Origin: Candidatus Woesearchaeota archaeon
Lineage (GTDB): Archaea > Nanobdellota > Nanobdellia > Woesearchaeales > GCA-2686295
Direction: 5' to 3'
Length of the DNA: 64,000 bases
Assembly: GCA_937912225.1 (NCBI GenBank)
Contig: CALDOJ010000034.1
Location: 556 to 64,555, forward strand
The notes below the pieces were generated by a model that ran no database searches, was not told the origin of the DNA, and saw nothing but the letters and a program-made list of their open reading frames with translations. The position numbers were made by a program, and so were the translations under genes. This document shows positions 2,840 through 59,519 of this stretch, piece by piece. The stretch's first letter is position 1. Every line of letters begins with the position of its first letter.

Positions 2840-3655
2840 TTATTCTTTAACAAAAACATTCAAGTCTTCTAACTCCATAGAATAAGGTATTAAATAATCC
2901 GTTCCTTTAGAAGAACCAGCCCAATTATAACCGTCATATGATAATCTCTCAGCAACCTCCATAAAAGGATTTGCAGGAGTGCCTATAACTATTGCACCAA
3001 AATTTAAAGGAATTGAAGGATAACGGTTTTCTAAAAAATCCAACACATCATGACCTCCCTTCATCAACAAAGTGTTTGTTGCACAATTATATTCAGGAAT
3101 AATCTCAGGTTTCTCAGCATCACCAGTAACTCGAAATGGCTTCTGAGATTCGTCAATTATATCTTGTGATTTTAAAGTACTAACTATATCGTTAATTCGC
3201 GCATCAGAGTAAGTATCTACATCCCACCACATATTAGGAACTTCTTCTTCTTGATAAAAACCAATATCCTGAAAAACAACTTTGTCAAAAATTCTTAACC
3301 AATAAAAATCAACTCCTGAAAAAGGATAATAACATTCGCCCTTAACAGATTCTGGCAGAAAAGAAGCAATGTTATCCAATACTCGAACAGCTTCGTTCAT
3401 TGCAGGATAACCTTCTTTTGCTTCTAAAGCTTCAAGTTCTCTATATCCATTCACATAACCAACCCATTCAACAGCAACAGCATTATGCATTCTAGAAATA
3501 AAATCTTGATCTTCAAGAGCTTTTTTTAAGTTACCATCATATTCGTTTCCAAGCATGTTTGTTGCAGTACTTAATGCTCGTTTATGAGCTGCTTTTATAC
3601 TCGATTCAAGGTTTATACGCTCAGCAGATTTAGTCATTGTGATTGTTAGGGCCAT
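2840..3655 (-). CDS. Hypothetical protein (271 aa)
   Basis: Long ORF with non-repetitive composition. Its start overlaps the stop of the upstream gene 3630..4442 by 26 nt in a different frame, which suggests a coupled pair or a frameshift. Confidence 0.55.
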   Translation of the reverse strand: MALTITMTKSAERINLESSIKAAHKRALSTATNMLGNEYDGNLKKALEDQDFISRMHNAVAVEWVGYVNGYRELEALEAKEGYPAMNEAVRVLDNIASFLPESVKGECYYPFSGVDFYWLRIFDKVVFQDIGFYQEEEVPNMWWDVDTYSDARINDIVSTLKSQDIIDESQKPFRVTGDAEKPEIIPEYNCATNTLLMKGGHDVLDFLENRYPSIPLNFGAIVIGTPANPFMEVAERLSYDGYNWAGSSKGTDYLIPYSMELEDLNVFVKE

Positions 3656-4442: not shown

Positions 4443-4590
4443 GCATCACCTATTACTCGAAGGAATACAGAATAATTTATAAAACTATTTCTTAATAACC
4501 ACTTAAAAGTTAATAATAATTAAATCAACATAAATCATTTTAATAAAACACAAATTCAAAACCTTTTTAAATTATTGTCAATACAACACT

Positions 4591-5280
4591 ATGATGAGTC
4601 TGGAAAATCGAAATCAAAATATTCTTTTAACAGTAGATATCATTGTTTTCTCAGTTATGCATGATAAATTAAATGTTCTTCTTATCAAAAGAAAAAACCC
4701 TCCTTTTCAAGGAGAATACGCTTTACCAGGTGGTTTTGTGAAAGATGATGAAGATTTACAAGAAGCTGCTAGACGAGAGTTAGTTGAAGAAACTAATGTT
4801 AAAAACATTTTCATGAAAAAATTGAATGTTTATGGTAAAGTTGATAGAGACCCTAGAGGTAGAGTTGTAAGTGCAGCTTACATTGCTTTAATTGACCATG
4901 AAAAGTTTCAATTAAAAGCTACAACTGATGCTTTAAAAGCAGAATGGATTCCATATGAGCACATTAAAGTTTTAGCTTTTGATCATAAAAAAATTTTATC
5001 TGAAGCATTAAAAGAATTAAGATATGATGTTCAAACAACAAATATTGCATCCCAATTATTACCTAATAGATTTACACTCACAGAACTTCAAAGATTGTAT
5101 GAAACCATATTAAACCAAGAACTTGATAAAAGAAATTTCAGGAAAAAAATAAAAACTTTCGAGATTCTAAAACCATTGAATGAAACTAAGATGGAAGGCG
5201 CGCATAGACCTGCTCAATTATTTTCATTTAAAGAAAAAGATTATCAACCATTAAAGGATAAAATTAAAGTATTTCTTTAA
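4591..5280 (+). CDS. Nudix-related transcriptional regulator (NrtR-like): an N-terminal Nudix domain with a C-terminal winged helix
   Basis: Nudix box GGFVKDDEDLQEAARRELVEETNV. The C-terminal ~80 aa (FTLTELQRLYETILNQELDKRNFRKK) has the wHTH pattern of NrtR/ADP-ribose-responsive regulators. It sits next to the nadBAC operon. Confidence 0.65.
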   Translation: MMSLENRNQNILLTVDIIVFSVMHDKLNVLLIKRKNPPFQGEYALPGGFVKDDEDLQEAARRELVEETNVKNIFMKKLNVYGKVDRDPRGRVVSAAYIALIDHEKFQLKATTDALKAEWIPYEHIKVLAFDHKKILSEALKELRYDVQTTNIASQLLPNRFTLTELQRLYETILNQELDKRNFRKKIKTFEILKPLNETKMEGAHRPAQLFSFKEKDYQPLKDKIKVFL

Positions 5281-6754: not shown

Positions 6755-6816
6755 TATTAGTTAGAAATCAATCTTTAAAAATTTTTAGAAAGAATAGACA
6801 TCCAATCTATATACTT

Positions 6817-6925
6817 AAAAACCACAATATTTATATATGGTAAGTGTTTAACTAACACTAAGATAATAAAACAACACTCATTTTTGCAAAAGACTAAGTG
6901 TAAAAAAAACAATAAGGCAATCAAA
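6817..6925 (+). repeat. Copy A of a ~105-nt conserved intergenic element. It has a TATA-like box followed by two inverted-repeat pairs built from AGTGT/ACACT half-sites.
   Basis: aaaaccacaatatttatatatggtaagtgtttaactaacactaagataataaaacaacactcatttttgcaaaagactaagtgtaaaa. It is near-identical to 16805-16912. It lies upstream of the operon that contains nadBAC. Confidence 0.75.
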
Positions 6926-6976: not shown

Positions 6977-7390
6977 ATGAGCAAAGAAAACTTGGTGGAA
7001 AAAGTCGTACAATACGTAAAACGTGCAGAACAAGAAAAAGACATCCCTTCATACCCAATAGATGAAGAAGACACTTACAAATACATAACAGGCAATTCTA
7101 GTGAACGAAGCAATGATCGAAGAACAGGAGGAATATACACTGGAAGATTCATTGATGTTGTAGCAACAATAGTTCAAAAATCTGATTTCTATGGTTTCTG
7201 GTGTAGCGAAGTTAACAATTCAAGCAACGGATACTTAATTCATTACAGACCTCAAATCGAAACAGTAAATGAAATTGAAGGACTTGACGACTATGTTATA
7301 AAAATACAAACTCTAGAAGAGGAAGCAGAGCAACTAGGTGTAAAACTAGAAGGATTAAACAAACAAATAGAAGAGAATTATTCAAAATAA
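6977..7390 (+). CDS. Hypothetical protein (138 aa). An alternative GTG start is at 6968.
   Basis: An ORF with a ggtga RBS before the ATG at 6977. First gene downstream of conserved element copy A. Confidence 0.5.
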   Translation: MSKENLVEKVVQYVKRAEQEKDIPSYPIDEEDTYKYITGNSSERSNDRRTGGIYTGRFIDVVATIVQKSDFYGFWCSEVNNSSNGYLIHYRPQIETVNEIEGLDDYVIKIQTLEEEAEQLGVKLEGLNKQIEENYSK

Positions 7391-7400
7391 AAACAAAGAG

Positions 7401-7679
7401 GTGAACATAAAAATGGTATTAAACGCGAACGAAGTGGAAAAGAAAACTACTGCAGATAAAATAAAAATTACTCGATTAGAAACTTTAATTGATAAAGCAT
7501 TAAAAAGAAATTTTCGAGGAAGTCATAGCTCAGTAATTTTTGAATATGAAACTGCAATAACTGCACTTAAACCATATCACTTACAAGAATTATTTAATGA
7601 ATATAGACAACAAGGTTGGGACGTTCAAGAACATTCAGACCAAAGAGAAGGAGAATACATCACTTTTTCAAAAAAATGA
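7401..7679 (+). CDS. Hypothetical protein (92 aa)
   Basis: ORF with RBS gaggtga, lying between the previous gene and nadB. Confidence 0.45.
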   Translation: MNIKMVLNANEVEKKTTADKIKITRLETLIDKALKRNFRGSHSSVIFEYETAITALKPYHLQELFNEYRQQGWDVQEHSDQREGEYITFSKK

Positions 7680-7784
7680 AAGAATTAACTAAAAGACTTA
7701 AAGATAAAACAATATTACTAGGTGCAAAATGAAACAAACAAAATTTAAAATTTTGGAACTTCAAAATTATGCTGAGGTGAAATT

Positions 7785-9407
7785 TTGAAACAAATTGAAT
7801 TTTTAATCATTGGAAGTGGAATTGCAGGCCTTCGAGCAGCAATCGAACTAAGCAAGCAAGGAAAGCAATCAACAATCATAACCAAAACAACTGTTGAAGA
7901 CTCAAATACAATGTATGCGCAAGGAGGAATTGCAGGAGTAGATCCTGTAAGAGTTGCAAATAACGAAGATAGTTTTGAATCACATGCGAATGATACAATT
8001 AACGCTGGTAAAGGATTAGTTAATGAAACAGTTGCACACAACTTTGCAAATCAAGCTTATGAAACAATTGATTTCTTAATGCAAGAAGGAGTTGAATTTA
8101 CTAAAAATGGCAAAAGTTATCCTTATGAATTACATCAAGAAGGAGGCCATGAACATCCTAGAATTTATTGCGTTGGAGACTTTACAGGTAAGGCAATTGA
8201 AGAAACACTTGTAGAAGTTGTAAAAGCAGATCCGAACATCACAATCCTAGAACAACACTCAGCAATCAACTTAATTACAAATGAAAAGTGCTTAGGCGCT
8301 TACGTCTTAAATAGGGAAACTGAAGAAATCGTCACAATCCAAGCGAAGAAAACTTTCTTAGCAACAGGAGGGGCAGGAAGGGTTTTTCAATACACAAGTA
8401 ACCCTCAAAATGCAACTGGCGATGGAATTGCAATGGCTTACAAAGCAGGTGCAAGAATCGCTAACATGGAATTCGTCCAATTCCACCCTAGCGTACTCTA
8501 CGAAGAAAACCCTAAAGACCCTTCAGAAAAAAGATTCTTATTAACTGAGGCTTTAAGAGGAGCAAAAATGGGTGGAATCTTAACAAATGATAAAGAATCA
8601 TTAGAAGATTTCGTGCTTAATTATAACCAAGAAGGATCACATTCAACAAGAGATATCGTTGCAAGAGCAATCGATACTGAAATGAAAACAAAAGGACTAA
8701 AGAATGTTTGGCTTAATGTAACGCCAGTTGTTACTGGCAAAAGCGAAGAATACATTAAAGAACATTTTCCAAAAATTTATGAGAAATGCTTAGAAAAAGG
8801 TATTGATATAACTAAAGAAGCAGCTCCAGTTGTTCCTGCAGCACATTATACTTGCGGAGGAGTCTTAGTTAATGAACATGGAGAAACAGACATTCCTAAT
8901 TTATATGCAATAGGTGAAGTTTCATACACAGGACTAATGGGTGCAAATAGACTTGCTTCAAACTCATTAACAGAAGGAGCACTTTATGGAAGACTTGCTG
9001 TAGAACACGCATTAGAAACAGCAGATAATGAAGAATATCAAACAATTGCAGATTGGGAAACTAGTCAAATTAAAGAAAACATTGATGTTGCAACTAGAAA
9101 CCAGTTTTGGGATACAACAAGACAAATAATGAGCAATATGTGTGGAATTGACAGAACTGCAGAGCGATTAAGTCTAGCATCAACTACAATTGATGCATTG
9201 GCTGACGCCGCAAATGAATTTTACTGGAATCACTTTCCAACAGCTGAAATCATTGAATTAAGAAATATAACACAAGTTGCAAAACTAATAGTTGATTCAG
9301 CAAAACAACGAAAAGAAAGCAGGGGCGGACATTACCGTTCAGACTTTCCAGAAATGAATGAAGATTACAATACAATAACAATAATTCAAAAAGAATTATT
9401 AAACTAA
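7785..9407 (+). CDS. nadB: L-aspartate oxidase
   Basis: TTG start after RBS gaggtga. FAD-binding GSGIAGL, and family motifs of the NadB/succinate dehydrogenase flavoprotein family (HYTCGG, RGGHYRSDFP). Confidence 0.9.
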   Translation: MKQIEFLIIGSGIAGLRAAIELSKQGKQSTIITKTTVEDSNTMYAQGGIAGVDPVRVANNEDSFESHANDTINAGKGLVNETVAHNFANQAYETIDFLMQEGVEFTKNGKSYPYELHQEGGHEHPRIYCVGDFTGKAIEETLVEVVKADPNITILEQHSAINLITNEKCLGAYVLNRETEEIVTIQAKKTFLATGGAGRVFQYTSNPQNATGDGIAMAYKAGARIANMEFVQFHPSVLYEENPKDPSEKRFLLTEALRGAKMGGILTNDKESLEDFVLNYNQEGSHSTRDIVARAIDTEMKTKGLKNVWLNVTPVVTGKSEEYIKEHFPKIYEKCLEKGIDITKEAAPVVPAAHYTCGGVLVNEHGETDIPNLYAIGEVSYTGLMGANRLASNSLTEGALYGRLAVEHALETADNEEYQTIADWETSQIKENIDVATRNQFWDTTRQIMSNMCGIDRTAERLSLASTTIDALADAANEFYWNHFPTAEIIELRNITQVAKLIVDSAKQRKESRGGHYRSDFPEMNEDYNTITIIQKELLN

Positions 9408-9456
9408 AGTCTCGGAGAGATTTAAGTAACAATTGTACAGAAGGAGGCATAAAAAA

Positions 9457-10365
9457 ATGGATGAGAAACAATTAGTAAAAGAAATTAAAAGGTTAAAAAA
9501 AGAAAAAAACGCAATTATTCTAGTGCATAATTATCAAAGACCAGAAATCTACCAAGTAGCAGATTTACTAGGAGATTCTTTAGAATTAGCAAAGAAAGCA
9601 GCTGAAACTGATAAAGACACAATAGTTTTTTGTGGAGTTCATTTTATGGCTGAAACAGCCAAATTATTGAATCCTTCAAAGAAAGTTTTACTGCCTGAAA
9701 TCAACGCAGGATGTCCAATGGCAGACATGGTAAAACCTGAAGATGTAGCTAGAATGAGAAAGGAACATCCAAAAGCAGTTGTTGCTTGCTACATTAATAC
9801 TACTGCTGAAACAAAAGCATTATGTGATATCTGTGTAACTTCAGCAAATGCAGTAGACGTAATTAACTCACTTGATGCAGATGAAGTAATTTTTGTTCCA
9901 GACATGAACTTGGGAAATTATGTTCAAAAGTTTACAAAGAAAAAAATGATTCCTTTCCAAGGATATTGTCACGTACACCATTCATTTGATGAAGAAAAAT
10001 TAAAACTTGCAAAAGAAAAATATCCTAAAGCAGTTGTAATAGCTCATCCTGAATGTCCTGAATTTATTTTAAAACATGCAGACGAAATTAGGTCCACTTC
10101 AGGCATGATTACTGCAGCAAGAGATAGTGACGCTCAAGAATTTTTAATTGCAACAGAACTTGGAATGATTGAAAGATTAAAACTTGAAGTTCCTGAAAAA
10201 ACCTTTTATTCAGCAGGAGCTATAAGAGTTTGTCCTAACATGAAAAAGACTTTTTTAGAATCAGTCTACAAAGCATTAAGAGATGATCAATACGAGATTG
10301 AAGTTCCAGAAGCAATTGCAACAAAAGCAGTTGAATGTGTTAACAGAATGATGAAGGTGAAATAA
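9457..10365 (+). CDS. nadA: Quinolinate synthase A
   Basis: RBS gaaggagg before MDEKQ. The ORF in the supplied track starts earlier, at 9433. NadA motifs and Cys ligands are present: FCGVHFMAE, AGCPMA, VFVPDMNLG, AHPEC. Confidence 0.9.
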   Translation: MDEKQLVKEIKRLKKEKNAIILVHNYQRPEIYQVADLLGDSLELAKKAAETDKDTIVFCGVHFMAETAKLLNPSKKVLLPEINAGCPMADMVKPEDVARMRKEHPKAVVACYINTTAETKALCDICVTSANAVDVINSLDADEVIFVPDMNLGNYVQKFTKKKMIPFQGYCHVHHSFDEEKLKLAKEKYPKAVVIAHPECPEFILKHADEIRSTSGMITAARDSDAQEFLIATELGMIERLKLEVPEKTFYSAGAIRVCPNMKKTFLESVYKALRDDQYEIEVPEAIATKAVECVNRMMKVK

Positions 10366-10366
10366 A

Positions 10367-11344
10367 ATGTTTGAACAAACAGCAGGAATGAGAATAGATA
10401 TGACCAATCAAGTTTATGATCAAAGTTGGCAATTAGAATTAAATGTTTCTGCACCAAAAAAGCCATTTGTTGATTATACAACCAGAGTTACTAACTTCAT
10501 CAATACAATGTTAGAAAATGATATTGGTGAAGGCGACTTAACAACTAAACTTGTTACAAATCCAAATCAGGAAGCTACAGCAATTATTAGCACTGAAGAA
10601 AATGGCGTTGTTGCAGGAATTGAAGAAGTAGTTAATTACTATGAAACTCATGGTGTTAAAGCCGTTCCTAAAGCAGAAGACGGAGATGTAGTTGAAAAAA
10701 ATCAAGAACTAATTTATCTTGAAGGTAAAGCACAATCTTTGTTAACACTTGAGCGAGTTGGGTTAAATATTATTAGACGAATGAGTGGCATTGCAACTTT
10801 AACAAGAGAATATGTTAATTTGTTAGAACCTTATAATACTCAGGTTGCAGGAACTAGAAAGACTAACTCTGAAGAATTATTGGAGAAAAAAGCAATCTAT
10901 CATGGAGGAGGATTAACTCATCGTTTAGGTTTAGACCAGCACATTATGATTAAGGATTGTCATTTAGATTTAATTGCTGCAGAAGGATATGAGCATCCAA
11001 TTACTGAAGCAGTAAACAGAGCTGAAGAAGTTCATTATAACACAATTGAAGTCGAGGTTAAAAATATTGGTGAAGCTGTTGAAGCTGCAAAAGCCATTTA
11101 TTCAGGGTTTGATATTGATAAACGATATGTTATAATGCTTGATAATATGCAACCAATTGAAATTACAGATACTCTTGAAGCACTTGGTAATTTGACCAGA
11201 GGAATTATCTTTGAAGCATCTGGCGGAATTAATCTTGATACTGCAGAAAGTTATGCTAAAACTGGAGTAGATGTTGTTTCTACCAGTCAAATTACTGAAC
11301 GAGCTATGCCTTTGAATATACATCAGAAGATAAAAATTAAATAA
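10367..11344 (+). CDS. nadC: Nicotinate-nucleotide pyrophosphorylase [carboxylating] (quinolinate phosphoribosyltransferase), with a ~40-aa N-terminal extension or a later true start
   Basis: LENDIGEGDLTT, AGTRKT, IMLDNM are classic NadC motifs. Its start overlaps the nadA stop. Confidence 0.9.
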   Translation: MFEQTAGMRIDMTNQVYDQSWQLELNVSAPKKPFVDYTTRVTNFINTMLENDIGEGDLTTKLVTNPNQEATAIISTEENGVVAGIEEVVNYYETHGVKAVPKAEDGDVVEKNQELIYLEGKAQSLLTLERVGLNIIRRMSGIATLTREYVNLLEPYNTQVAGTRKTNSEELLEKKAIYHGGGLTHRLGLDQHIMIKDCHLDLIAAEGYEHPITEAVNRAEEVHYNTIEVEVKNIGEAVEAAKAIYSGFDIDKRYVIMLDNMQPIEITDTLEALGNLTRGIIFEASGGINLDTAESYAKTGVDVVSTSQITERAMPLNIHQKIKIK

Positions 11345-16747: not shown

Positions 16748-16804
16748 AAAAAATAGTTTAGTTCATTCTGAGCATTCAATCTCGTTCTACCACACTTATA
16801 TACT

Positions 16805-16912
16805 ACAAAACCACAATCTTTATATAGACTAAGTGTTTAACTAACACTAAGATAATAAACGCAACACTTATTCTTACGAAAGACTAAGTGTAAAACAAAC
16901 AATAACTAAACA
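16805..16912 (+). repeat. Copy B of the ~105-nt conserved intergenic element. It lies upstream of the radical SAM-nadE operon.
   Basis: aaaaccacaatctttatatagactaagtgtttaactaacactaagataataaacgcaacacttattcttacgaaagactaagtgtaaaac. It is about 85-90% identical to 6817-6925, with the same half-sites at the same spacing. Confidence 0.75.
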
Positions 16913-16918
16913 AAGAAA

Positions 16919-17032
16919 ATGACAAACATAACAACAAACGAAGAACTAAGAGACCTAGGAACTGTTCATGGTAAAGAAGGCAACTTCGCAGTTCTAATGG
17001 TGAACCAAGAGGTACAATTCGTACAAATATAG
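16919..17032 (+). CDS. Small upstream ORF (37 aa). Its stop codon directly abuts the GTG start of the radical SAM gene. It may be a leader peptide, a coupling ORF or a precursor peptide.
   Basis: Translates to MTNITTNEELRDLGTVHGKEGNFAVLMVNQEVQFVQI. The last 6 nt read TAG GTG: the stop at 17030-17032, then the GTG start at 17033-17035. The ORF is not in the supplied track because it is shorter than 60 aa. Confidence 0.3.
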   Translation: MTNITTNEELRDLGTVHGKEGNFAVLMVNQEVQFVQI

Positions 17033-17917
17033 GTGATTAAAACGAGAATACAAACATATAGCGTAATTGCAGGAAGCACAGCATGCAATGCTAAATGCCC
17101 ATACTGTGTTTCAAGAATGACACCAAAAGTTGGACTCGACTATAAAATCAGCGAGCCAAACTGGCGAAACTTTGAGAAAGGATGCGAATATGCAAAAGAC
17201 AGTGGAGTCTCAACAGTTTTAATCACAGGTAAAGGCGAGCCAACATTATTCCCTGATCAAATATCAGATTATTTAACTCATTTAGAGAATTACAAGTTCC
17301 CATTCATCGAAATGCAAACAAACGGTATAACATTAGCCAAACAACAAGAGAAAATGAAACCATACCTAAAAGACTGGTATGACAAGGGACTTACAACATT
17401 TGCAATCTCAATGGTTCATTACGATTCAAAGAAGAACAAAGAAATCTACGAACCTACTGCAAAAGAACACTACGAACTTGAAGATTTAATCAAAAACCTA
17501 CATGATGAAGGATTCTCAGTAAGATTAACAAATGTAATGGTTAAAGATTACATAGACAATCTTGAAGGAGTTTTAGATTTAATCAACTTTGCAAAAGAAA
17601 ACAAAGTCGAACAATTAACAGTAAGGTCAGTTGAATCACCAAACGAAGCAGAAGATGCAAGCGTAAAAGAATGGGCTGACGAAAGAAAAATAGAACAAGA
17701 AAAAGTTGACGAAATTAGAGATTTCTTAGACGAAAACGGAACCAGACTTCTAGAATTAGTTCATGGAGCAATTGTTTATGATTACGAAGGACAAAATATC
17801 TGTGTTAGCAACTGTCTAACAATGGATCCAAACGAAGAGCGAATCAGACAATTAATTTTCTTCCCAGACGGACATTTAAGATATGACTGGGCACATGAGG
17901 GGGCAATAATACTATGA
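17033..17917 (+). CDS. Radical SAM domain protein
   Basis: CNAKCPYC is the CX3CX2C motif, near the N-terminus. GKGEPTLFP is a glycine-rich SAM motif. GTG start. The 3' end overlaps the nadE start (ATGA). Confidence 0.75.
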   Translation: MIKTRIQTYSVIAGSTACNAKCPYCVSRMTPKVGLDYKISEPNWRNFEKGCEYAKDSGVSTVLITGKGEPTLFPDQISDYLTHLENYKFPFIEMQTNGITLAKQQEKMKPYLKDWYDKGLTTFAISMVHYDSKKNKEIYEPTAKEHYELEDLIKNLHDEGFSVRLTNVMVKDYIDNLEGVLDLINFAKENKVEQLTVRSVESPNEAEDASVKEWADERKIEQEKVDEIRDFLDENGTRLLELVHGAIVYDYEGQNICVSNCLTMDPNEERIRQLIFFPDGHLRYDWAHEGAIIL

Positions 17918-18804
17918 GACGAATAAAATTAGCAAGAATGAACCCAGAACAAGTTGCCAATGAAATTGGAGATTTCATCATTAACTACACATTCGGCTCA
18001 AAAGGAGGAGTAATGGGTTTGTCAGGAGGCGTTGATTCAACAACTGTTGCAGCATTAACAAAAAAAGCTTTTGACAGATATAATCAACACAACAAAAACC
18101 AACTAGAACTTGTTGGATACATGCTTCCTTCAGGAGTTAATAATAAAGAAGATACTAAAGACGGAGTTTATGTTGCAAACAAATTAGGCATCAGATATGA
18201 AATACAAAACATCGATGCAATCGTTAATTCTTACAAAACTACTAATCCCAAAACACTAGAAAATAATTTTCACAAAGGAAATCTAATGTCTGAAGTTCGA
18301 GCTTCAATTCTACACAGAAAAGCGGCAACTGAAGGAAAATCAGTAATTGGAACTGGTAATAAAGATGAAGATTTTGGAATTGGTTATTACACTTTATTTG
18401 GAGATGGTGCAGTTCATATGAGCCCAATCGGTAACTTACCAAAAAGATTAGTTAGAGAAATGGCAGCATACCTGGGATTTACAGAATTAGCTAACAGAAT
18501 TCCAACTGCAGGTCTAGAACCAGATCAAACTGACTTCAAAGATTTAGGTTACAGCTACGACGTTGTAGAACTAATCACTGAAGGAATAAATCAAGGATTC
18601 GAATATAACCAATTAATCAATCATGAACAAGTAATTCCATTAGTAAACAAAGAACTGGAGGCATACGAAAAAATGTACGAAACAAGAAAATTTAACTCTG
18701 TAGAAGACGTTGTAAATGACATATACAACAGACACGATTTAGCAAACATCAAAGCAAATATCATCAACCCACCAATTGCAGAAATAACATTAGAATACAG
18801 GTAA
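17914..18804 (+). CDS. nadE: NH3-dependent NAD+ synthetase
   Basis: PP-loop GLSGGVDSTTVAAL and NadE-type downstream motifs. Confidence 0.9.
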   Translation: MRRIKLARMNPEQVANEIGDFIINYTFGSKGGVMGLSGGVDSTTVAALTKKAFDRYNQHNKNQLELVGYMLPSGVNNKEDTKDGVYVANKLGIRYEIQNIDAIVNSYKTTNPKTLENNFHKGNLMSEVRASILHRKAATEGKSVIGTGNKDEDFGIGYYTLFGDGAVHMSPIGNLPKRLVREMAAYLGFTELANRIPTAGLEPDQTDFKDLGYSYDVVELITEGINQGFEYNQLINHEQVIPLVNKELEAYEKMYETRKFNSVEDVVNDIYNRHDLANIKANIINPPIAEITLEYR

Positions 18805-18868
18805 ATAAAATGCGACCCCAAACAAAAATAGAATTTTTGAAAATTCATAATTTCAAAAAGGTGAAACC

Positions 18869-19306
18869 ATGAATCAACCATACCCACTACCAGCAACAGA
18901 CGTAATAATAGAATACAAAAATTGTGTTAAAGAAGGAATTGTATTAATTACTAGAAAATATAATTCTAAAGGCAAAATTGCTTTACCTGGTGGACATGCA
19001 GAGCTTGGATTAACACTCGAAGATAACGCGGTAAAAGAAGCTAAAGAAGAAACTGGACTAGATGTAATAATTCAAAATCCAAACAGACCTTGGGTTTATT
19101 CTGATGGAAATAGAGATCCTCGAGGCCATTACATCAGCAATACTTACATCGCAACTGGAACCGGAACAATACAAGCAGGTGACGATGCTGCAACTGCAAC
19201 TCTTTACAGTTTAGATGAAGTTGTTAATCTGCTTGATAAAAATAAATTTGCATTCGATCATGAAGATATTGTAAAAGATTATCTAAGACATAGGAGGGTT
19301 CTATAA
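18869..19306 (+). CDS. Nudix hydrolase (ADP-ribose pyrophosphatase-like)
   Basis: Nudix box GGHAELGLTLEDNAVKEAKEETGL. It is adjacent to an NMNAT-like gene, as in NadM-Nudix fusions. Confidence 0.8.
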   Translation: MNQPYPLPATDVIIEYKNCVKEGIVLITRKYNSKGKIALPGGHAELGLTLEDNAVKEAKEETGLDVIIQNPNRPWVYSDGNRDPRGHYISNTYIATGTGTIQAGDDAATATLYSLDEVVNLLDKNKFAFDHEDIVKDYLRHRRVL

Positions 19307-19307
19307 A

Positions 19308-19922
19308 ATGAGTTTAGGAAGGACAGGTTTTATTGGAAGATTCAAACCATTACATTTGGGAGCTGCTTTAGCACTTGAAACATTATGCCAACAATCAGAT
19401 CACGTAATTATTGGTATTGGCAGTTCTAATAAATATAATGCTCGAAGTCCTTTTACAGCCGAAGAATCTGAAGATATGATTAATGCTGTTTTAGCAGAAT
19501 ATTCTAATTATGAAATTGTTAAAATCCCTGATTTTGCTCAAGAAGCGAAATATAGCGATGGTAATAAATGGAAAAGTTATATGATTCAAGAATTTGGAAC
19601 GCTCGATCATTTCGTTTCAGGAAATACTTATGTTTCAGATTTATTGTCAACTCATTACGATGTTATTCATCCCGCTTCTTTAATTCCTCCAGATGAACAA
19701 ATTCCAATTAGAGCAACAGAAGTTAGAATTAAAATGGCTCAAAACACTGTTTGGCAATCATTAGTTCCTGAAATAGTTGTTGATTATTTAGAGAATAACA
19801 ATCTTGTTGAAAGGTTTAGAAATGAGTTTGGTTTAGAAACACTTACTCACTTAATCAACCATCCAGATTATCTTACTGATGAGAGTACTTTAGCAGAAAA
19901 ATTACATACAACGGAGACATAA
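19308..19922 (+). CDS. Archaeal-type (NadM-like) nicotinamide-nucleotide adenylyltransferase homolog. It carries HLGA in place of the canonical HxGH.
   Basis: GRFKPLHLGAA compared with the archaeal NMNAT consensus GRFQPFHxGH. IRATEVR is the ISxTxIR-like C-terminal motif. Its start follows 1 nt after the Nudix stop. Confidence 0.6.
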   Translation: MSLGRTGFIGRFKPLHLGAALALETLCQQSDHVIIGIGSSNKYNARSPFTAEESEDMINAVLAEYSNYEIVKIPDFAQEAKYSDGNKWKSYMIQEFGTLDHFVSGNTYVSDLLSTHYDVIHPASLIPPDEQIPIRATEVRIKMAQNTVWQSLVPEIVVDYLENNNLVERFRNEFGLETLTHLINHPDYLTDESTLAEKLHTTET

Positions 19923-19923
19923 A

Positions 19924-20694
19924 ATGAGTTTACTAGGTAATTATGAAATCATAAAAGAAATCGCCGAAGGAGGTTTTAGTAGAATATTCCAAGGCAGACA
20001 TACAATTCTTAACGAGTATGCTTGTCTTAAACAAAATAAAGAAGCAACAAAAGATGATGTTGCTTTACTAGAGCTTGAAGCTAAACTTTTATGGAACCTT
20101 TCAGAACATCATTCTATTCCTTCAACAAAAGATTTTTTCAGACTTGGAAAACATAATTGTGTTATGGTGATGGATTATATTGAAGGTAAAACTATCGATC
20201 AAACTATTCCAGATGGCTCCCAAATGCATCCTGAAGAAGCTTGTTGGATTACTGAGCGATTACTCGGAGCATTATATTATGTTCATTATAATGGTGTTAT
20301 TCATTCAGATATTAAACCTCAAAATGTAATTATCGAACCAAAAAAACACGATATTAAACTAATAGATTTTGGACTTGCAACATTCAAACCAACTAGTGGT
20401 TCTAGACCTGTTGGTTACACAGCACAATATGCTGCCCCCGAAGTTTTAGATATGAAACCACCAATTCCTGAAAGTGATTTATATGGTGCAGGCATCATCA
20501 TGTTATATGCGCTAGGTGGAGATATTCCAACAAAATCTTTTCCAAAAAATACTCCAAAACCAATAGTTGAATTTTGCAATCCATTACTCAGATATGATCC
20601 TAAAGATAGACCTAATTGGGATAAAATAAATTTAATTGAAGAGCTGTCAGACGTTAGATACGAGGTTTTCGGAAGAAGACATTGTTCTGAATAA
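19924..20694 (+). CDS. Ser/Thr protein kinase (Hanks-type)
   Basis: Gly-rich loop region (EGGFSRIFQG), catalytic loop HSDIKPQNVII, DFG (IDFGLA) and APE (YAAPEV). Confidence 0.85.
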   Translation: MSLLGNYEIIKEIAEGGFSRIFQGRHTILNEYACLKQNKEATKDDVALLELEAKLLWNLSEHHSIPSTKDFFRLGKHNCVMVMDYIEGKTIDQTIPDGSQMHPEEACWITERLLGALYYVHYNGVIHSDIKPQNVIIEPKKHDIKLIDFGLATFKPTSGSRPVGYTAQYAAPEVLDMKPPIPESDLYGAGIIMLYALGGDIPTKSFPKNTPKPIVEFCNPLLRYDPKDRPNWDKINLIEELSDVRYEVFGRRHCSE

Positions 20695-20760
20695 AAAACG
20701 TATGACTGAGATTTGAGCTAGCGATAGCTCTACAATAAAAAACTAGTAGGAGGAGATAAA

Positions 20761-21759
20761 ATGTACGGATGGGGTTCAGACACCACCAGTTGGAAAGGAC
20801 CTAAGAAATACGAGTATGATTCTGCAAGGAGTCCATACTTGGATAAATTAGGATCTTCTTCCAAAGCAAAAGGTCCGAGAAGTTATATGTCTCGAAGTTC
20901 ACCAGATATGGATTTGGTAAACCCTCGAGGCAAAAATATTACCAGCGATAGTGAAAACCCTATTATTTTAGGTGTTGATGTGACTGGTTCTATGGCTACT
21001 TGGCCGGCAGAGATTTTTGATAGGTTGCCATTGTTCTACCAAACACTTTCCCAGTATCGGAAAGATGTAGAAATTAGTTTTGCAGCCATCGGAGACGCAT
21101 ACTGCGATAGTTACCCAATACAAGTTACGGATTTCACAAAGGAACTGGACTTGGAAAAAAAGCTAAATGCTTTATGCCCTGAAGGAGGCGGCGGAGGACA
21201 AGTTAGCGAGACTTACGAATTATTTGGACATTTTCTGTTAAATCATTGTGAGACTCCAAATGCTAAAACTCCATTCTTATTTTTATTTGGAGATGAAAAG
21301 TTCTACGACACCGTGAATCCAGATCAAATAGAACATTATATTGGTGATAAAGTGCAATCTGCACCTAATTCTAATGAGGTTTGGAAAGGGCTAATGCAAA
21401 AGTTCAATGTTTACTTGTTACATAAACCATACGGTTATGGTGATAGTTCAAGTGTTGACAAAGAAGTAGTTGATCATTGGGCTAAAGCAATTGGTAGACA
21501 ACGAATAATTGAGCTTCCTAGCAAGGAAAGAGCTGTTGATATTGCAATGGGAATTGTTGCAAAGCACTGGGGTAAATTCTCTGATTTTGGAGATAACTTG
21601 AGTGCAAGACAAGATTCTAGTTCTTCAGCTCCAGTGTATGATTCATTGAGGATGATAGATGACCCTTCAACGTCAAATCATTCTGTAGTGACGAGAAAAG
21701 CTAGTGGAGACAAAACTACATCATTAAGCGAAATGTTTGATGATGCTAAAAAACCATGA
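20761..21759 (+). CDS. vWA-domain protein
   Basis: MIDAS DVTGSM, a second MIDAS element (GGGGGQVSETY), and FLFGDE. The C-terminus is Ser-rich. Strong RBS (aggagg). Confidence 0.7.
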   Translation: MYGWGSDTTSWKGPKKYEYDSARSPYLDKLGSSSKAKGPRSYMSRSSPDMDLVNPRGKNITSDSENPIILGVDVTGSMATWPAEIFDRLPLFYQTLSQYRKDVEISFAAIGDAYCDSYPIQVTDFTKELDLEKKLNALCPEGGGGGQVSETYELFGHFLLNHCETPNAKTPFLFLFGDEKFYDTVNPDQIEHYIGDKVQSAPNSNEVWKGLMQKFNVYLLHKPYGYGDSSSVDKEVVDHWAKAIGRQRIIELPSKERAVDIAMGIVAKHWGKFSDFGDNLSARQDSSSSAPVYDSLRMIDDPSTSNHSVVTRKASGDKTTSLSEMFDDAKKP

Positions 21760-21825
21760 AGATGTTCAAAAAAATATTTTCAGGGTGCCAGAAAAATAAA
21801 GTTTTTCTGAGCATAAGTGAGGTAA

Positions 21826-22188
21826 ATGAAAATGGGAGATGAAATTGCAGATAGGGTTGCAGAAGCAAATTATTCCATAGTTACAACTACTAGAGCCAAA
21901 TATTTTGGAGAAGTAGTGCCTAATGGTGGAAAAGGAATAACTATAAATTCTGCGTATGAAGTGCAAGGTGAAAAAGAACCGCAGGCAGTTGCAATGGGTT
22001 TTATTAGAGGCAAACTCTATGGCGAAAACAAGAAAATCGAATTATCGGATGCTCTTGTTGAGTCCGTAACAGATGCTTTAGATGAGACTCGAATTTTGAA
22101 GACTTATGAAGCATTGCTACCTGAAGCAGAGAAACGAGCTCTTGGAATTATGACTTTCAAAGCGCTTGAAGACTTGCTTTCGAAATAA
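21826..22188 (+). CDS. Hypothetical protein (120 aa)
   Basis: ORF preceded by RBS gaggtaaatg. No family recognised. Confidence 0.45.
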   Translation: MKMGDEIADRVAEANYSIVTTTRAKYFGEVVPNGGKGITINSAYEVQGEKEPQAVAMGFIRGKLYGENKKIELSDALVESVTDALDETRILKTYEALLPEAEKRALGIMTFKALEDLLSK

Positions 22189-22226
22189 TTTTTTGAGGGG
22201 CTTTTCGCCCTTCTTTTTATTTTAAA

Positions 22227-23207
22227 ATGAAACTGAACATATTTAAAAAGGAAAACAAAGGTGAACTAAAAATGAAACATATAACAACAAAGATTTTAAC
22301 TAAACCTAAAGCAATAGTTACAATACCTCCATACGCTCCTTTCATCCACGAAGTATTACAGCACGAAGCTGTTTCTGGAATTAGATTAAATACTGTTATG
22401 CCAATTACTGAACCTTTAGAAGATGTTGTTGATAGATTAAATTCTGAAGCTTTAAGATATGGTAAAGAATTATGGGTTGATTTAAAATGTCGACAGTTAA
22501 GAGTTAAAACTTATGGCGTCCCCCCATTTACAGAAATCGAACTAACTCACAATATTAATGTTCGAACTCCTATTACCGCTTATTTTTCTGATGGTAAAGA
22601 ATCTGCCACTGTTTTAAGAGTTGATAAGAATCGATTAATAATGCAAGAAGGTCCTGGTAGAGTTGTTGGGCCTGGCGAATCAGTTAATATTCCTGATTAC
22701 TCTTTGCGTATTGAAGGTTTCTTTACGAATACTGATAAAGCCTATATTGAAGCTGGCAAACAAATTGGTTTTCATAATTATATGCTTTCATTTATTGAAG
22801 ATAAAAATGATAAATCTGAACTGTTAAAGCTTGACCCTAAGGCAATAATCGTTGAAAAAATTGAATCATTGAGAGGAATGGATTATGTTGTTAATGATTG
22901 GGATGGCTCAACAAATTTAATGACTGCAAGAGGAGATTTATATTTAGAATTAAAAATGCCTCATAAAATTGTTCAAGCTCAAGAAACCGTTATTAAAAAA
23001 AATCCTGCTGCGATTGTTGCATCAAGAATATTTAGTTCACTTGCTTATAATCTTGAACCTAGTTGTGAAGATATTGGCGATGTTGAAAACTTGTTAAGAA
23101 CAGGTTACAAAACTTTGATGTTTGGCGACGATATTTGTATGAAGCGAGAATCAATTATTAGTGGTTTAAATTTGTTTGAAACTATGAGTCGGAGGTATGA
23201 GAGATAA
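22227..23207 (+). CDS. Hypothetical protein (326 aa)
   Basis: Long ORF in an operon context. The N-terminal KAIVTIPP...GIRLN...VDLKCRQLR very weakly resembles the N-terminal strand of a PK/HpcH-type TIM barrel. Not assignable. Confidence 0.5.
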   Translation: MKLNIFKKENKGELKMKHITTKILTKPKAIVTIPPYAPFIHEVLQHEAVSGIRLNTVMPITEPLEDVVDRLNSEALRYGKELWVDLKCRQLRVKTYGVPPFTEIELTHNINVRTPITAYFSDGKESATVLRVDKNRLIMQEGPGRVVGPGESVNIPDYSLRIEGFFTNTDKAYIEAGKQIGFHNYMLSFIEDKNDKSELLKLDPKAIIVEKIESLRGMDYVVNDWDGSTNLMTARGDLYLELKMPHKIVQAQETVIKKNPAAIVASRIFSSLAYNLEPSCEDIGDVENLLRTGYKTLMFGDDICMKRESIISGLNLFETMSRRYER

Positions 23208-37070: not shown

Positions 37071-37850
37071 CTACCTATTTTTACCACTCTTTAGTGGTTT
37101 ATTCAAATATTTTTGCATATGATTGAAAGGATCGTCATAACAAAGACAACCAAGAGGAGTTAAAAAATCAGAGAATGTTTGTGCATAAGCAACCAAATCA
37201 CTTATTAAATCTTTATGGTCTTGAAAATTTTGATAAACAACTTCTCTGCCAACAACTCTACCTTTGTTAAGTTCAGATTTATTAATACAATGATCTTTAA
37301 TTAACCAATCAATTGTTTCAGTATCATTAGGATCAAAAATAGCACCAAAATCAATTTGATTAATTTTCAAATCACCAGTTAATAAAACATTAACAGCTCG
37401 CCTATCTTTCAAAGCTAAAGTGTTAACAAGCTCCATTGAATAACCAAAACTATATGCAACTTCCAATTCTTTACCTTCAGGAACATAAAATTTTTTGCCA
37501 GGAAGACCTTCCATCATGACGAGATTTTCATTATGAAGGCCATCCCAAGTAATAAAATTGTGATTCGCACCAGCCAAAATATTATCCAAAGCCATACCAA
37601 GAGCTTCTCTAGAAGCACCTTCCAAAGAAGTTTTAACATAAACATCTTTCTTAGAACCGTTCTTAAGAACAGCTTCATACTTATCAACAGAATAACCAGT
37701 TTTAATTTCAGAAACGTGTTTGAACTTCACAGGTTTTTCACCAAACAAAACACCAGATAATTGTTTAATTCTTCGCGTACGATAATTAAAATGACTAGGT
37801 GCAGGCGGAAGACGAACACGACCAAGAAGTTTATCCAAATCAACATTCAT
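37071..37850 (-). CDS. PI3/PI4-kinase-like atypical kinase-fold protein, group A paralog 6
   Basis: DVYVK Lys, alphaC Glu (SREALGM), catalytic loop ALKDRRAVNVLL and IDFGAIF. Confidence 0.7.
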   Translation of the reverse strand: MNVDLDKLLGRVRLPPAPSHFNYRTRRIKQLSGVLFGEKPVKFKHVSEIKTGYSVDKYEAVLKNGSKKDVYVKTSLEGASREALGMALDNILAGANHNFITWDGLHNENLVMMEGLPGKKFYVPEGKELEVAYSFGYSMELVNTLALKDRRAVNVLLTGDLKINQIDFGAIFDPNDTETIDWLIKDHCINKSELNKGRVVGREVVYQNFQDHKDLISDLVAYAQTFSDFLTPLGCLCYDDPFNHMQKYLNKPLKSGKNR

Positions 37851-38605
37851 CGAGCAACCCCCAAATAATCACACATATAAACAAACGGATCATCACAAAC
37901 AGGTTTTTGAACACAAGTGAAATCTTCAAAAGACCTTGCATAAACAATTAAATCTTCAATTAAATTTTTATTATCTTTAAAATTTTGACGCACCACTTCT
38001 TTACCAGCAACTCGTCCTTTATTTAATTGAACAGAATCCATACTATGAAAATCAATTAAATATTCAATAGAACCATTATCACCAGGATAAAAAAGCGAAC
38101 CAAAATCAATATGATTAATATTAAAGGTTTCAGTTAACAAAACATTAGTAACCCATCTATCTTTAAGAGATAAAGCATTTACTAATTCCATCGAATATCC
38201 AAGATTAAAAGCAACTTCTTTTTCTTTGCCTTTTGGCACATAAAAATCCTCTCCAGGAAGATTTTCCATCACCAGATTATGATTACCAAAACGATCATCC
38301 CATAAAAAATAATTATGACCTGCATCTTGCAACATATTTGCCAAAGTCATTCCAAGCGCTTCTTTGTAAACACCTTCCCAAGACTGTTTAACATAAAAAT
38401 CCTTTTTTGAACCATCTTGAAAAGTAGCTTTATACATATGAACAGTTGATGCATGACCAAGATCACAAGAATGACTAATTTTCTTAGGCATTTCATCAAA
38501 TAATAAACTAGATAATTGTTTAATTCTACGCTTATAAGTATTAACATTAAAAGGCTCAGGAAGTTCAACAATTCCAAGATGTTTATCTAAAACAATATCA
38601 GTCAT
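37847..38605 (-). CDS. PI3/PI4-kinase-like atypical kinase-fold protein, group A paralog 5
   Basis: DFYVK, LKDRWVTNVLL and IDFGSLF. 4-bp overlaps on both sides. Confidence 0.7.
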   Translation of the reverse strand: MTDIVLDKHLGIVELPEPFNVNTYKRRIKQLSSLLFDEMPKKISHSCDLGHASTVHMYKATFQDGSKKDFYVKQSWEGVYKEALGMTLANMLQDAGHNYFLWDDRFGNHNLVMENLPGEDFYVPKGKEKEVAFNLGYSMELVNALSLKDRWVTNVLLTETFNINHIDFGSLFYPGDNGSIEYLIDFHSMDSVQLNKGRVAGKEVVRQNFKDNKNLIEDLIVYARSFEDFTCVQKPVCDDPFVYMCDYLGVAR

Positions 38606-39399
38606 CGAGAAACCCCCAAATAAAGTTTCATATGAGTAAAAGGATCATCTAAAATATAATCATCCTCTTCAGAACACATTTTCTTAGAAAAATAATTAAC
38701 CATTGATTCAATCTCAGGTTGATATTTTAAAAAATTATTACGAATAAGTTTATAGCCATCAATTGTTCCTTCAGAAACAGCATCTTCATCTAAATGAAAC
38801 CATTTAATATGGTAATCTCCTTGAAATAAATCCTTATGATAAAATAAACAATCATTATCAAGATGTCGAACAGCTCCTTTTTCAGATACTAGTATGTTTC
38901 CAGCATGTCGATCATCTAATGCTAAAGTTCTAGCCAATTCTAAAGCAATGCCAAAAGAATAACTAATTTCAGTTTTTAGAGTTTCAGGAAAACCCAATCT
39001 AGAACCTCGCAGTTGATCAATAACAATCATTCTTTCAGGAGTTGAATCATCTAAAGAATCTGAATAAAGAAATTTTTGTTCTTCACCAAGTAATAAATTC
39101 TGTAAAGTTATGCCAACCGCTTCAAACAAAGGATGAGATTTTGGTTCTTTTGCAAAGAAAGTTTCTGAACGTCCATTTTCAAGCAAGATATTAAAACCTG
39201 TAATAGTAGTATAAATCTCCTTTAACATAGCAATACCAAAACTTTTAATTGAAGCTATTTCATCAACTGAAACACCATATAAATCTGATGCAACTTTCTT
39301 TTGAAGAGCTAAATCCTCATGAAAAGTTTTAAGACTGGGAAGAGCAACTTCATAACTAAACAATTCTTTTACAGTATCAGAAAGTTCAGGCAAACTCAT
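38602..39399 (-). CDS. PI3/PI4-kinase-like atypical kinase-fold protein, group A paralog 4. Its DFG position is degenerate.
   Basis: TFFAKEP, LDDRHAGNILV and HLDNDCLF, which has no DFG. Confidence 0.7.
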   Translation of the reverse strand: MSLPELSDTVKELFSYEVALPSLKTFHEDLALQKKVASDLYGVSVDEIASIKSFGIAMLKEIYTTITGFNILLENGRSETFFAKEPKSHPLFEAVGITLQNLLLGEEQKFLYSDSLDDSTPERMIVIDQLRGSRLGFPETLKTEISYSFGIALELARTLALDDRHAGNILVSEKGAVRHLDNDCLFYHKDLFQGDYHIKWFHLDEDAVSEGTIDGYKLIRNNFLKYQPEIESMVNYFSKKMCSEEDDYILDDPFTHMKLYLGVSR

Positions 39400-40148
39400 C
39401 GCTTAACCCCCAGATAATCACACATGTAAGCAAACGGATCATTCAAAACATCAGGTCTTGAAGCAAAAGGTATTTGTTCATCAACCCAATCAACAACCAT
39501 TTTAATATCATCTTTATTATCAATAAATCGTTGACGAATAGCTTCATGAGCTGAAAGTCTTCCTTTGTTAAATTTACGACGACTTAAACCATAAGCATCT
39601 GCAACTTTCGCACCAGTTATCAAATCTTTTTCATCAAATAAACATTCATAATCAATATGTCTGATAGTTCCTCTCCCATCAACTAATAAGTTTCCAGTAT
39701 TTCTATCTTTTAAATGCAAAACCATTTCTAATTCTGAAGCCACACCAAGATTAAAACTGGCTCTTTTCTTACGACCTACATTTTTAAAAATTCTTCCAGG
39801 AATCGCTTCCATCAAAATAGAACTAGGATCTGTTGTATAATCATCAAGTTGAGGAATTGCATAACTCCAATTCTCACCAGTTAAAACATTGTTCAAATAC
39901 CAACCAAGTCCTTCTAATAAAGAACCTGTATGAAAACAATCTTTAACATAAAAAGTCTTATTAGAACCATCACCCAAAGTTAATTCATAACCTTTAATCA
40001 TTTCTTGATTAGTAATTAAACTACTAGAAACAATTTTTTCATCAATACCAAATAAAGCTTTAGGAACATCAGCCATTCTTTTCTCAGAATATACATCATA
40101 AAAAGAAGGAACATCTCCAATCCGAAGTAATTTTTCAGGCGAAGTCAA
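39396..40148 (-). CDS. PI3/PI4-kinase-like atypical kinase-fold protein, group A paralog 3
   Basis: TFYVKD, LKDRNTGNLLV and HIDYECLF. Confidence 0.7.
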   Translation of the reverse strand: MTSPEKLLRIGDVPSFYDVYSEKRMADVPKALFGIDEKIVSSSLITNQEMIKGYELTLGDGSNKTFYVKDCFHTGSLLEGLGWYLNNVLTGENWSYAIPQLDDYTTDPSSILMEAIPGRIFKNVGRKKRASFNLGVASELEMVLHLKDRNTGNLLVDGRGTIRHIDYECLFDEKDLITGAKVADAYGLSRRKFNKGRLSAHEAIRQRFIDNKDDIKMVVDWVDEQIPFASRPDVLNDPFAYMCDYLGVKR

Positions 40149-40936
40149 TTTATTTCACCCTCTAATTTTTGTTTTATATAATCAAAAGGAGAAATAGTTT
40201 CAAACAATTCAGATCTTAATAAACCATCATAAGCCCAGTTAGCCAAATCGCGAATTAGTTCTTCATTAGTTTTGAAATTAACTCTCATCTCTTCACGAGC
40301 ATCAAGTCTGCCTTTTTCAAATTCCTCTTCAGAATAACCACTATTCTTAACTAATTGTTTACCAGTTCGATCATCCCAACCAGCCCAAAATAATGCTCCA
40401 AAATCTATATTACGAATTACTAAGTTATCATCAATTAACATATTAGGACTTCTTCGATCAGCAAGATTTAAAATTTTGGCAGATTCAAAAGCCCGACCCA
40501 TTGAATAAGAAATTTCAGTTAAGAAATCATAATTAACATTAAAAGTTGTTCCAGGAACTTCATCCATAATAACCACATTAATAAAATTATCAAGCAAATC
40601 CAATTTATTAACTAACATCAAGAAATTTCTGTCTTCACCAGTTAATAGATTATTCAAAGTAATACCAACTGCTTCTTGAAACGCACCAGTCACATAGCAA
40701 TCTTCTTCTTCTTTAACATAATAAGTTTTAGAAGTTCCATCTTTAAGCATTAATTTATGACCTGCAACGTTCGAATTTCCAGATGCAAAAGGTTCATCAA
40801 TAAGAATATCGTCTGAATCAACCCCATACATTTCTCTAGCAACATATCTGCCTAAATTTTGAGAATCAAGAAGAGTAACTTCATCAGTAAAAGGCCTATA
40901 ATTCAACAAGTCTTTCATTCTATCTGGAAAACTCAT
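40145..40936 (-). CDS. PI3/PI4-kinase-like atypical kinase-fold protein, group A paralog 2
   Basis: TYYVKE, LADRRSPNMLI and IDFGALF. Confidence 0.7.
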   Translation of the reverse strand: MSFPDRMKDLLNYRPFTDEVTLLDSQNLGRYVAREMYGVDSDDILIDEPFASGNSNVAGHKLMLKDGTSKTYYVKEEEDCYVTGAFQEAVGITLNNLLTGEDRNFLMLVNKLDLLDNFINVVIMDEVPGTTFNVNYDFLTEISYSMGRAFESAKILNLADRRSPNMLIDDNLVIRNIDFGALFWAGWDDRTGKQLVKNSGYSEEEFEKGRLDAREEMRVNFKTNEELIRDLANWAYDGLLRSELFETISPFDYIKQKLEGEIN

Positions 40937-42224: not shown

Positions 42225-42225
42225 T

Positions 42226-43256: not shown

Positions 43257-43257
43257 T

Positions 43258-44160: not shown

Positions 44161-44161
44161 T

Positions 44162-59424: not shown

Positions 59425-59519
59425 TATAAAAGAAGAATCAGGAATAACATTTAAATGTTACTATTTGGTGGTGGTTATTTTCCACAATATTTAAATAGTT
59501 AATTTGGTTTTCTAACAAA

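Follow-up and report, generated by a model that had tools for sequence, protein, structure and literature searches.

Two operons for NAD biosynthesis lie in the window, by which we mean the whole 64,000-nt stretch of DNA analysed here, and each is preceded by a copy of the same short element (Table 1). The gene content of both operons is as the preliminary description had it, judged by Pfam, NCBIfam and the list of open reading frames (ORFs). The first copy ends 62 nt before the ATG at 6977; the second ends 14 nt before a 37-codon ORF (16919-17032) and 128 nt before the GTG at 17033. Both copies contain a TATA box followed by two predicted operators, which we call O1 and O2, and the gene for a putative regulator, nrtR, lies 1.5 kb upstream of the first copy.

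Table 1. Features of the window, and leader hairpins in related loci (L numbers are our locus designations).
Feature	Position	Strand	Basis or remark
TATA-like box of nrtR promoter, TTTTTAAA	4564..4571	+	Read from sequence; adjoins operator as in relatives' nrtR promoters
nrtR operator (predicted), TTATTGT-CAATACA-ACACTAT	4572..4592	+	12/14 match plus GT-N7-AC core
nrtR, Nudix domain plus NrtR winged-helix DNA-binding domain	4591..5280	+	Pfam NUDIX 3.4e-19, NrtR_WHD 4.7e-26
Cassette copy 1	6807..6915	+	Pairwise alignment, repeat search
BRE-like element plus TATA, CCACAATA-TTTATATA	6822..6837	+	TATA at 6830-6837; identical CCACAATATTTAAATA at 59482-59497
O1, 21-bp NrtR operator (predicted), TAAGTGT-TTAACTA-ACACTAA	6841..6861	+	13/14 match to clade motif
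Spacer and start of 5' leader	6862..6894	+	Orphan ACACT 6874-6878, T5 run 6882-6886
O2, second 21-bp NrtR site (predicted), TAAGTGT-AAAAAAA-ACAATAA	6895..6915	+	12/14 match
Operon 1: orf137, orf92, nadB, nadA, nadC (de novo NAD synthesis)	6977..11344	+	Pfam, ORF list
Cassette copy 2	16796..16905	+	TATA 16819-16826, O1 16830-16850, O2 16885-16905
Operon 2: 37-codon ORF, radical SAM, nadE, Nudix, NMNAT-like, Ser/Thr kinase, orf332	16919..21759	+	Pfam, NCBIfam
Unrelated promoter, same BRE/TATA CCACAATATTTAAATA, no operator	59482..59497	+	TATA-to-start-site calibration
Leader hairpin plus T5-T8 in relatives	L006 3700-3751; L009 4439-4480; L180 2180-2239; L208 4049-4129; L210 4161-4220; L212 6937-6991		Between two NrtR operators

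The two near-identical copies claimed earlier are real: 96 of 110 aligned columns are identical (87%), with a single 1-nt indel. Their best boundaries lie about 10 nt to the left of those first drawn and enclose direct copies of 109 nt (copy 1) and 110 nt (copy 2), with unrelated sequence on both sides. The copies share a fully identical 30-nt core, TAAGTGTTTAACTAACACTAAGATAATAAA, that the rest of the window lacks; chance would yield none there even with 3 mismatches. A repeat search of the 64-kb window returned no third full copy, and a third place, at 59482-59497, has only 16 nt in common with the element (CCACAATATTTAAATA).

Divergence between the copies is unevenly distributed. The TATA box, O1 and O2 together are identical at 49 of 50 positions and the remainder at 47 of 60 (Fisher p = 0.003), with about half of the 13 differences outside the sites falling in the spacer between O1 and O2 (7 or 8 of 34 columns). 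Counting against a promoter-operator cassette, conservation is also high (21/23 identical) in the 23 nt that precede the TATA box. One difference in 50 against 13 in 60 argues for selective constraint on the protein-binding parts of a duplicated cassette. Both copies, we conclude, come from the duplication of one cassette, in which nothing but the TATA box, O1 and O2 has stayed constant since.

A sharp-edged block of about 109 nt with unrelated flanks and internal inverted repeats could also be a MITE-like mobile or recombinogenic element, as was suggested earlier, or a neutral recent duplication without a regulatory role. However, there are only two copies in 64 kb, both oriented toward NAD operons and fixed in place before them; their inverted repeats are internal rather than terminal, no target-site duplication is present, and divergence is concentrated outside the TATA box, O1 and O2. 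In other genomes, homologous cassettes occupy the same position (nrtR, then a NAD operon), and across 80 genomes most sites precede NAD genes, as detailed below. Copy number, position and the pattern of divergence exclude a MITE, and we assign next to no probability to either version of this explanation.

Each copy carries a canonical archaeal BRE/TATA arrangement, CCACAAT-TTTATATA, and TTTATATA is kept in every orthologous element. The preliminary description had named a ttatata box at the 5' edge as the TATA-like element; that box is present at 6807-6814, but the canonical archaeal TATA is the second box, TTTATATA. The 5' box (CTATATAC or TTATATAC) occurs at the edge of both copies (6807-6814 and 16796-16803), 23 nt upstream of the canonical TATA, and ATATAT-type boxes are also found 17-30 nt upstream of the TATA in three related loci (L204, L206 and L208).

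The 16-mer shared with the unrelated promoter calibrates the distance from TATA to start site. At that promoter (stretch 59482-59522), CCACAATATTTAAATA stands 22 nt before the leaderless ATG of the gene at 59520, and the sequence TTTAWATA is found 21-24 nt before the ATG at five window genes, this one included, which implies leaderless mRNAs. The gene at 59520 and the four further TTTAWATA genes thus identify the shared 16-mer as a BRE/TATA promoter core. Transcription from the element should accordingly start 22-25 nt after the TATA, at 6859-6862 in copy 1 and near 16849 in copy 2; the leaderless TATA-to-ATG spacing places this predicted start site at the 3' end of O1.

The promoter type agrees with the likely origin of the DNA. 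The closest homologues of the window NrtR (50-72% identity) are labelled Woesearchaeota or Nanoarchaeota, and a 105-kb aquatic metagenome contig encodes an identical NrtR protein. On a syntenic contig (L208), a gene for TFIIB/TFB accompanies nrtR, pncB, pncA, the radical SAM gene, nadE, Nudix, NMNAT, the kinase gene, orf332 and a pyruvate-kinase-like gene. Sigma-70-like matches in the window are at chance level (83 vs 85.6). By these sequence relationships the host is an archaeon of the Woesearchaeota/Nanoarchaeota (DPANN), and the operators would therefore act on a TATA/TFB-type rather than a sigma-70 promoter.

O1 is identical in both copies, begins 3 nt downstream of the TATA and fills the interval between TATA and predicted start site. 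O2 follows 54-55 bp downstream of O1 (about five helical turns), at roughly +35 to +55 in the leader, and combines one consensus half-site with one variant half-site around an A-rich centre. The 33-34-nt spacer between them forms no stable structure when folded alone. The published NrtR operator signature is a 21-bp palindrome with a GT-N7-AC core (PMC2330246), and O1, O2 and the nrtR operator all conform to it. In a scan of the window that demanded the GT and AC core bases and no fewer than 12 matches among the 14 arm positions, five sites turned up; chance predicts 0.2, and none of 200 dinucleotide shuffles gave more than two. All five (O1 and O2 of both copies, and 4572-4592) lie in three promoters, those of nrtR and the two NAD operons. 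The nrtR operator overlaps the ATG at 4591, implying autoregulation, and the same layout of TATA, operator and ATG precedes nrtR in other loci (L016:9937, L009:3591 and L076:9984).

Two inverted repeats had been noted in the element, AGTGTT-N5-AACACT and AACACT-N17-AAGTGT, and both are present. The first is the core of O1 and extends to 21 bp. The second, which pairs an orphan ACACT of the spacer with the left arm of O2, did not hold up as an operator, being unconserved in relatives; as far as sequence can tell, only its 3' arm is functional, as the left half of O2. The orphan ACACT (6874-6878) was also considered as part of a third operator and rejected, as it is weakly conserved and no partner half-site stands at N7. 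A near-match, AAAGTGTTTGTTGCACAATTA, occurs at 3069-3089 inside an ORF on the minus strand (2840-3655) and is probably a chance match.

The identification of the 4591-5280 product as an NrtR-like Nudix/winged-helix regulator is upheld by Pfam and by matches in the PDB (BtAraR, 1.7e-42; Shewanella NrtR, 2e-28). Its best NCBIfam match, 'ADPR responsive transcriptional repressor', falls under the cut-off (183 vs 400 bits). Two motifs of the DNA-binding domain, DKRNFRK and GAHRPA, are invariant across the clade that has the operator motif. The Nudix box is nearly intact (G-x5-E-x7-RELVEETNV, with only the last Gly changed), whereas those of BtAraR and Shewanella NrtR are degenerate. Because the catalytic residues are kept, the window NrtR may also hydrolyse its effector; the protein is thus possibly an active ADP-ribose hydrolase besides a repressor.

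We compared 80 loci retrieved by alignment of NrtR homologues from a collection with one genome per species, 11 of them archaeal and the rest from bacteria of many phyla. The motif TTAGTGTA-N5-TACACTAA is the consensus of 44 sites, with invariant arms and a variable centre. Around the nrtR start (270 bp) it occurs 2.03 times per kb, against 0.032 times per kb elsewhere, a 64-fold difference, and shuffled upstream regions contain none. It stands at the nrtR start in 33 loci whose GC contents range from 30% to 68%, including both bacteria of 60-68% GC and Woesearchaeota, and is found beside nrtR in cyanobacterial, planctomycete, verrucomicrobial, acidobacterial and proteobacterial loci. Over the 1.2 Mb of the 80 loci, 67 of 82 strong sites (82%) lie no more than 400 bp upstream of nrtR (44), pncB (20), nadA (2) or pncA (1). 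In these loci the sites are therefore not scattered at random places, which would have told against the earlier proposal. The signature match, the motif enrichment and the conservation at orthologous loci together support the earlier proposal of an NrtR regulon with palindromic operators.

These comparisons also bear on whether the palindromes might be operators of some regulator other than the 4591-5280 product. The window does encode further unannotated proteins, and the pairing of NrtR with these sites is predicted here from sequence. However, the motif co-occurs with nrtR homologues in many phyla, usually in the promoter of nrtR itself, and fits the published signature of the NrtR family, and DKRNFRK and GAHRPA do not vary across the clade that shares it. 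A different regulator is thus exceedingly unlikely.

In Woesearchaeota loci the 21-bp site follows the TATA after 0-4 nt, and two promoter types can be distinguished. In the short type the ATG comes 1-6 nt after the site (nrtR in L016, L009 and L076; nadA in L016 and L025), so that the operator fills the TATA-to-start-site interval of a leaderless gene. The long type, to which the window copies belong, has the order TATA, O1, leader, O2, Shine-Dalgarno sequence and ATG (L204, L210, L211/L154, L006, L009, L180, L206, L208 and L212) and lies mostly between nrtR and pncB or nadE. Two of these elements (L204 and L211) align over their full length with the two window copies; the TATA, the O1 arms and O2 are invariant among the four, and the spacer is poorly conserved. 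Nearly the same O2 sequence recurs in L006, L009, L204, L211 and L212, loci that were fetched through the protein and not the site.

Spacing is less constant than sequence. In relatives O1 and O2 are 23 to 125 bp apart, with a short-spacer class at 52-55 bp (about five turns), so a cooperative complex of fixed geometry is unlikely as a general feature; on the same range, helical phasing of the two sites was rejected as a rule. Metagenome contigs were also scanned for the exact O2 pattern, TAAGTGTAAAANNNACAATAA, giving at least 119 matches. Among the matches listed, 115 of 119 were chance occurrences with no O1 nearby; L154, L155 and L180 were useful, and a further locus (L092) was discarded as an unrelated tandem repeat.

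The element might instead be a cis-regulatory leader RNA, a riboswitch or attenuator whose AGUGU/ACACU hairpins sense a NAD-related ligand or a protein, and this structured-leader alternative had been raised before. Two hairpins can indeed be drawn, the copy 2 fold is better than those of its shuffles (z = -4.6), the few differences between copies inside hairpin 2 preserve pairs (U-G to C-G), and the leaders of relatives contain some hairpin. Against this, shuffling copy 1 gives folds of comparable stability (z = -1.1), and the stems of copy 2 are the operator arms. A consensus fold of four homologous elements reaches only -3.85 kcal/mol with an unfavourable covariation term (+0.5), and the spacer of relatives ranges from 2 to 104 nt with no conserved sequence. 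Arms that are conserved in sequence across phyla around variable centres are what a protein-bound palindrome, and not an RNA stem, would show. Additionally, O1, which would be hairpin 1, lies between the TATA and the predicted start site and would thus be mostly untranscribed. Searched with the Rfam models, those of the NAD+ riboswitches included, the window gave no match that reached the gathering threshold; with the cut-off relaxed to E <= 10, neither copy nor its surroundings gave a relevant one. With no Rfam match, no covariation and O1 upstream of the predicted start, we reject a riboswitch; an RNA leader of any of these kinds is highly unlikely.

Archaeal repressors such as MDR1, LrpA, Phr and NrpR occupy the DNA immediately after the TATA box and so keep RNA polymerase from being recruited, a typical mode of repression in archaea. 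O1 shares that geometry, overlapping the interval from TATA to start site, and since the protein families differ, the likeness is one of mode of action only. We consider each copy to be, very probably, an archaeal promoter-operator cassette that is predicted to be controlled by NrtR and to drive a NAD biosynthesis operon. TBP and TFB would bind CCACAAT-TTTATATA, and dimers of the 4591-5280 protein would bind O1, O2 and the third site, in the promoter of nrtR itself. NrtR on O1 would block recruitment of RNA polymerase, and NrtR on O2 may add to the repression, either cooperatively or as a roadblock. By analogy with NrtR of Synechocystis and Shewanella, a NAD-derived nucleotide such as ADP-ribose would release NrtR, so that nadBAC, nadE-NMNAT and nrtR are induced. 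The nearly intact Nudix box speaks indirectly for such a release; we count against the effector analogy that the solved relative closest by sequence is the arabinose-responsive BtAraR. Promoters with two NrtR sites are known experimentally, from Shewanella prs-nadV and Bacteroides BT0356.

One feature of the relatives falls outside this account and counts against it. In six of them (L006, L009, L180, L208, L210 and L212) a GC-rich, terminator-like hairpin followed by T5-T8 stands between O1 and O2, the T-run ending 8-10 nt before O2. These leader hairpins range from -13 to -24 kcal/mol (z = -1.4 to -5.5), and their sequences are unrelated between lineages. Such a terminator-like signal in the 5' leader, standing at a constant distance from an operator, points to NrtR-coupled attenuation, to a terminator shared with nrtR or to a second, weak promoter; no one of these accounts for every case. 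As a terminator of nrtR the arrangement was rejected, because L154/L211 have nrtR upstream but neither hairpin nor T-run, and in some loci other T-runs precede the TATA.

O2 and the T-run 8-10 nt upstream of it could accordingly form a separate module, either a leader terminator that depends on NrtR or a weak second promoter starting inside O2. Besides the six relatives, the T5 of copy 1 (9 nt before O2), the A-rich O2 centre conserved in most lineages, the Shine-Dalgarno sequence that usually adjoins O2 in relatives and the use of hairpin plus T-run signals at gene ends in this organism (22195-22213) speak for such a module. However, the T-run of copy 2 is interrupted, L154/L211 have no T-run, the window spacers alone form no stable hairpin, and the T-run bears little resemblance to the TTTAWATA boxes that serve elsewhere in the genome. 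A roadblocked polymerase is expected to stall about 14-18 nt before the site, and this position falls at the start of the T-run rather than its end. Internal O2-like sites between genes also occur without a T-run (L025:2990 and L206:12253). Thus, we regard a separate module as unlikely. A more specific version for DPANN NrtR promoters is quite unlikely: O2-bound NrtR would couple occupancy to premature termination, or the TATA/O1 promoter would yield a short NrtR-controlled leader RNA, and the window copies would be reduced versions, copy 1 with T5 and copy 2 with a run that has decayed. On this reading, the leaders of these promoters would add a second layer of control.

The cassettes resemble bacterial NrtR regulons (NrtR standing for Nudix-related transcriptional regulator, here of NAD metabolism; Rodionov et al. 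2008, PMC2330246) in having a regulator with the same two domains, a 21-bp GT-N7-AC palindrome, targets that comprise de novo and salvage NAD genes together with nrtR, chromosomal linkage of nrtR and tandem sites (as at prs-nadV). They differ in their DPANN host, in an operator between archaeal TATA and start site rather than overlapping -35/-10, in a second operator that lies in the leader 52-125 bp on (against 24-30 bp between the tandem sites of the bacterial loci compared here) and in the almost intact Nudix catalytic residues of the window NrtR. The element belongs to the NrtR regulon family in every testable respect, outside the bacterial scope in which the family was originally described: its host is of the Woesearchaeota/Nanoarchaeota rather than bacterial, with a TATA/BRE promoter and leaderless genes, a departure that concerns scope, not mechanism. 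The available literature that was searched describes NrtR as bacterial, and we found no archaeal NrtR regulon or operator there; one database survey of NrtR states that its search set included archaeal sequences.

The solved structure closest by sequence is BtAraR of Bacteroides thetaiotaomicron (PDB 5BS6, PMC4666351), a member of the NrtR family and likewise a dimer covering about 25 bp at a two-site promoter. In contrast to the window protein, it responds to L-arabinose and serves sugar utilisation, and its Nudix box reads RVLAEL against RELVEE here, where the context is NAD metabolism only. NAD+ riboswitches (nadA motif class I and pnuC motif class II), NadR and NiaR control the same kinds of genes (nadA, pnuC, pncB and nadBAC). 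The NadR operator, TGTTTA-N6-TAAACA, differs in sequence from the window operators, and no NadR or NiaR gene was found among the ORFs scanned around both operons (3.5-22 kb).

Our data thus provide a testable regulon for uncultivated DPANN archaea, in which gene regulation is almost uncharacterised, consisting of a regulator, an operator (TTAGTGTA-N5-TACACTAA), three target promoters and a predicted start site. One regulator-operator pair is common to many bacterial phyla and to archaea almost unchanged, and in archaea it is fitted into the interval from TATA to start site. Because the mechanism is conventional, the regulon is of value for annotation and comparison, not as a new concept. Additionally, the radical SAM enzyme, the Ser/Thr kinase, orf332 and the small ORFs are marked as candidates for NAD-related functions.

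Several of these genes recur around NAD operons. The block from nadE to orf332 (nadE, Nudix, NMNAT, Ser/Thr kinase and orf332) is conserved in Woesearchaeota NAD operons (L006, L007, L009, L016, L025 and L208), and the radical SAM gene often accompanies it; in the window (17033-23207) and in L208 a pyruvate-kinase-like gene follows orf332. The 37-codon ORF (MTNITTNEELRDLGTVHGKEGNFAVLMVNQEVQFVQI) ends in a TAG stop directly next to the GTG with which the radical SAM gene begins, an arrangement suggestive of translational coupling or of a precursor peptide. This ORF has no family match, and relatives lack it in front of their radical SAM gene; in these, pncA precedes that gene, and the ORF was rejected as a pncA relic because it has no similarity. 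In the first operon, orf137 and orf92 are unrelated to the small ORFs that follow the L180 element, and no other locus encodes a homologue of either. Behind these two lineage-specific small ORFs (137 and 92 aa), the first operon holds a complete de novo NAD pathway (nadB, nadA and nadC) in a DPANN archaeon. Elsewhere in the window, at 37071-46773 on the minus strand, lie arrays of paralogous genes, mostly of about 250-375 aa (one of 496 aa), with many families of direct repeats (D1-D9, D13 and D14).
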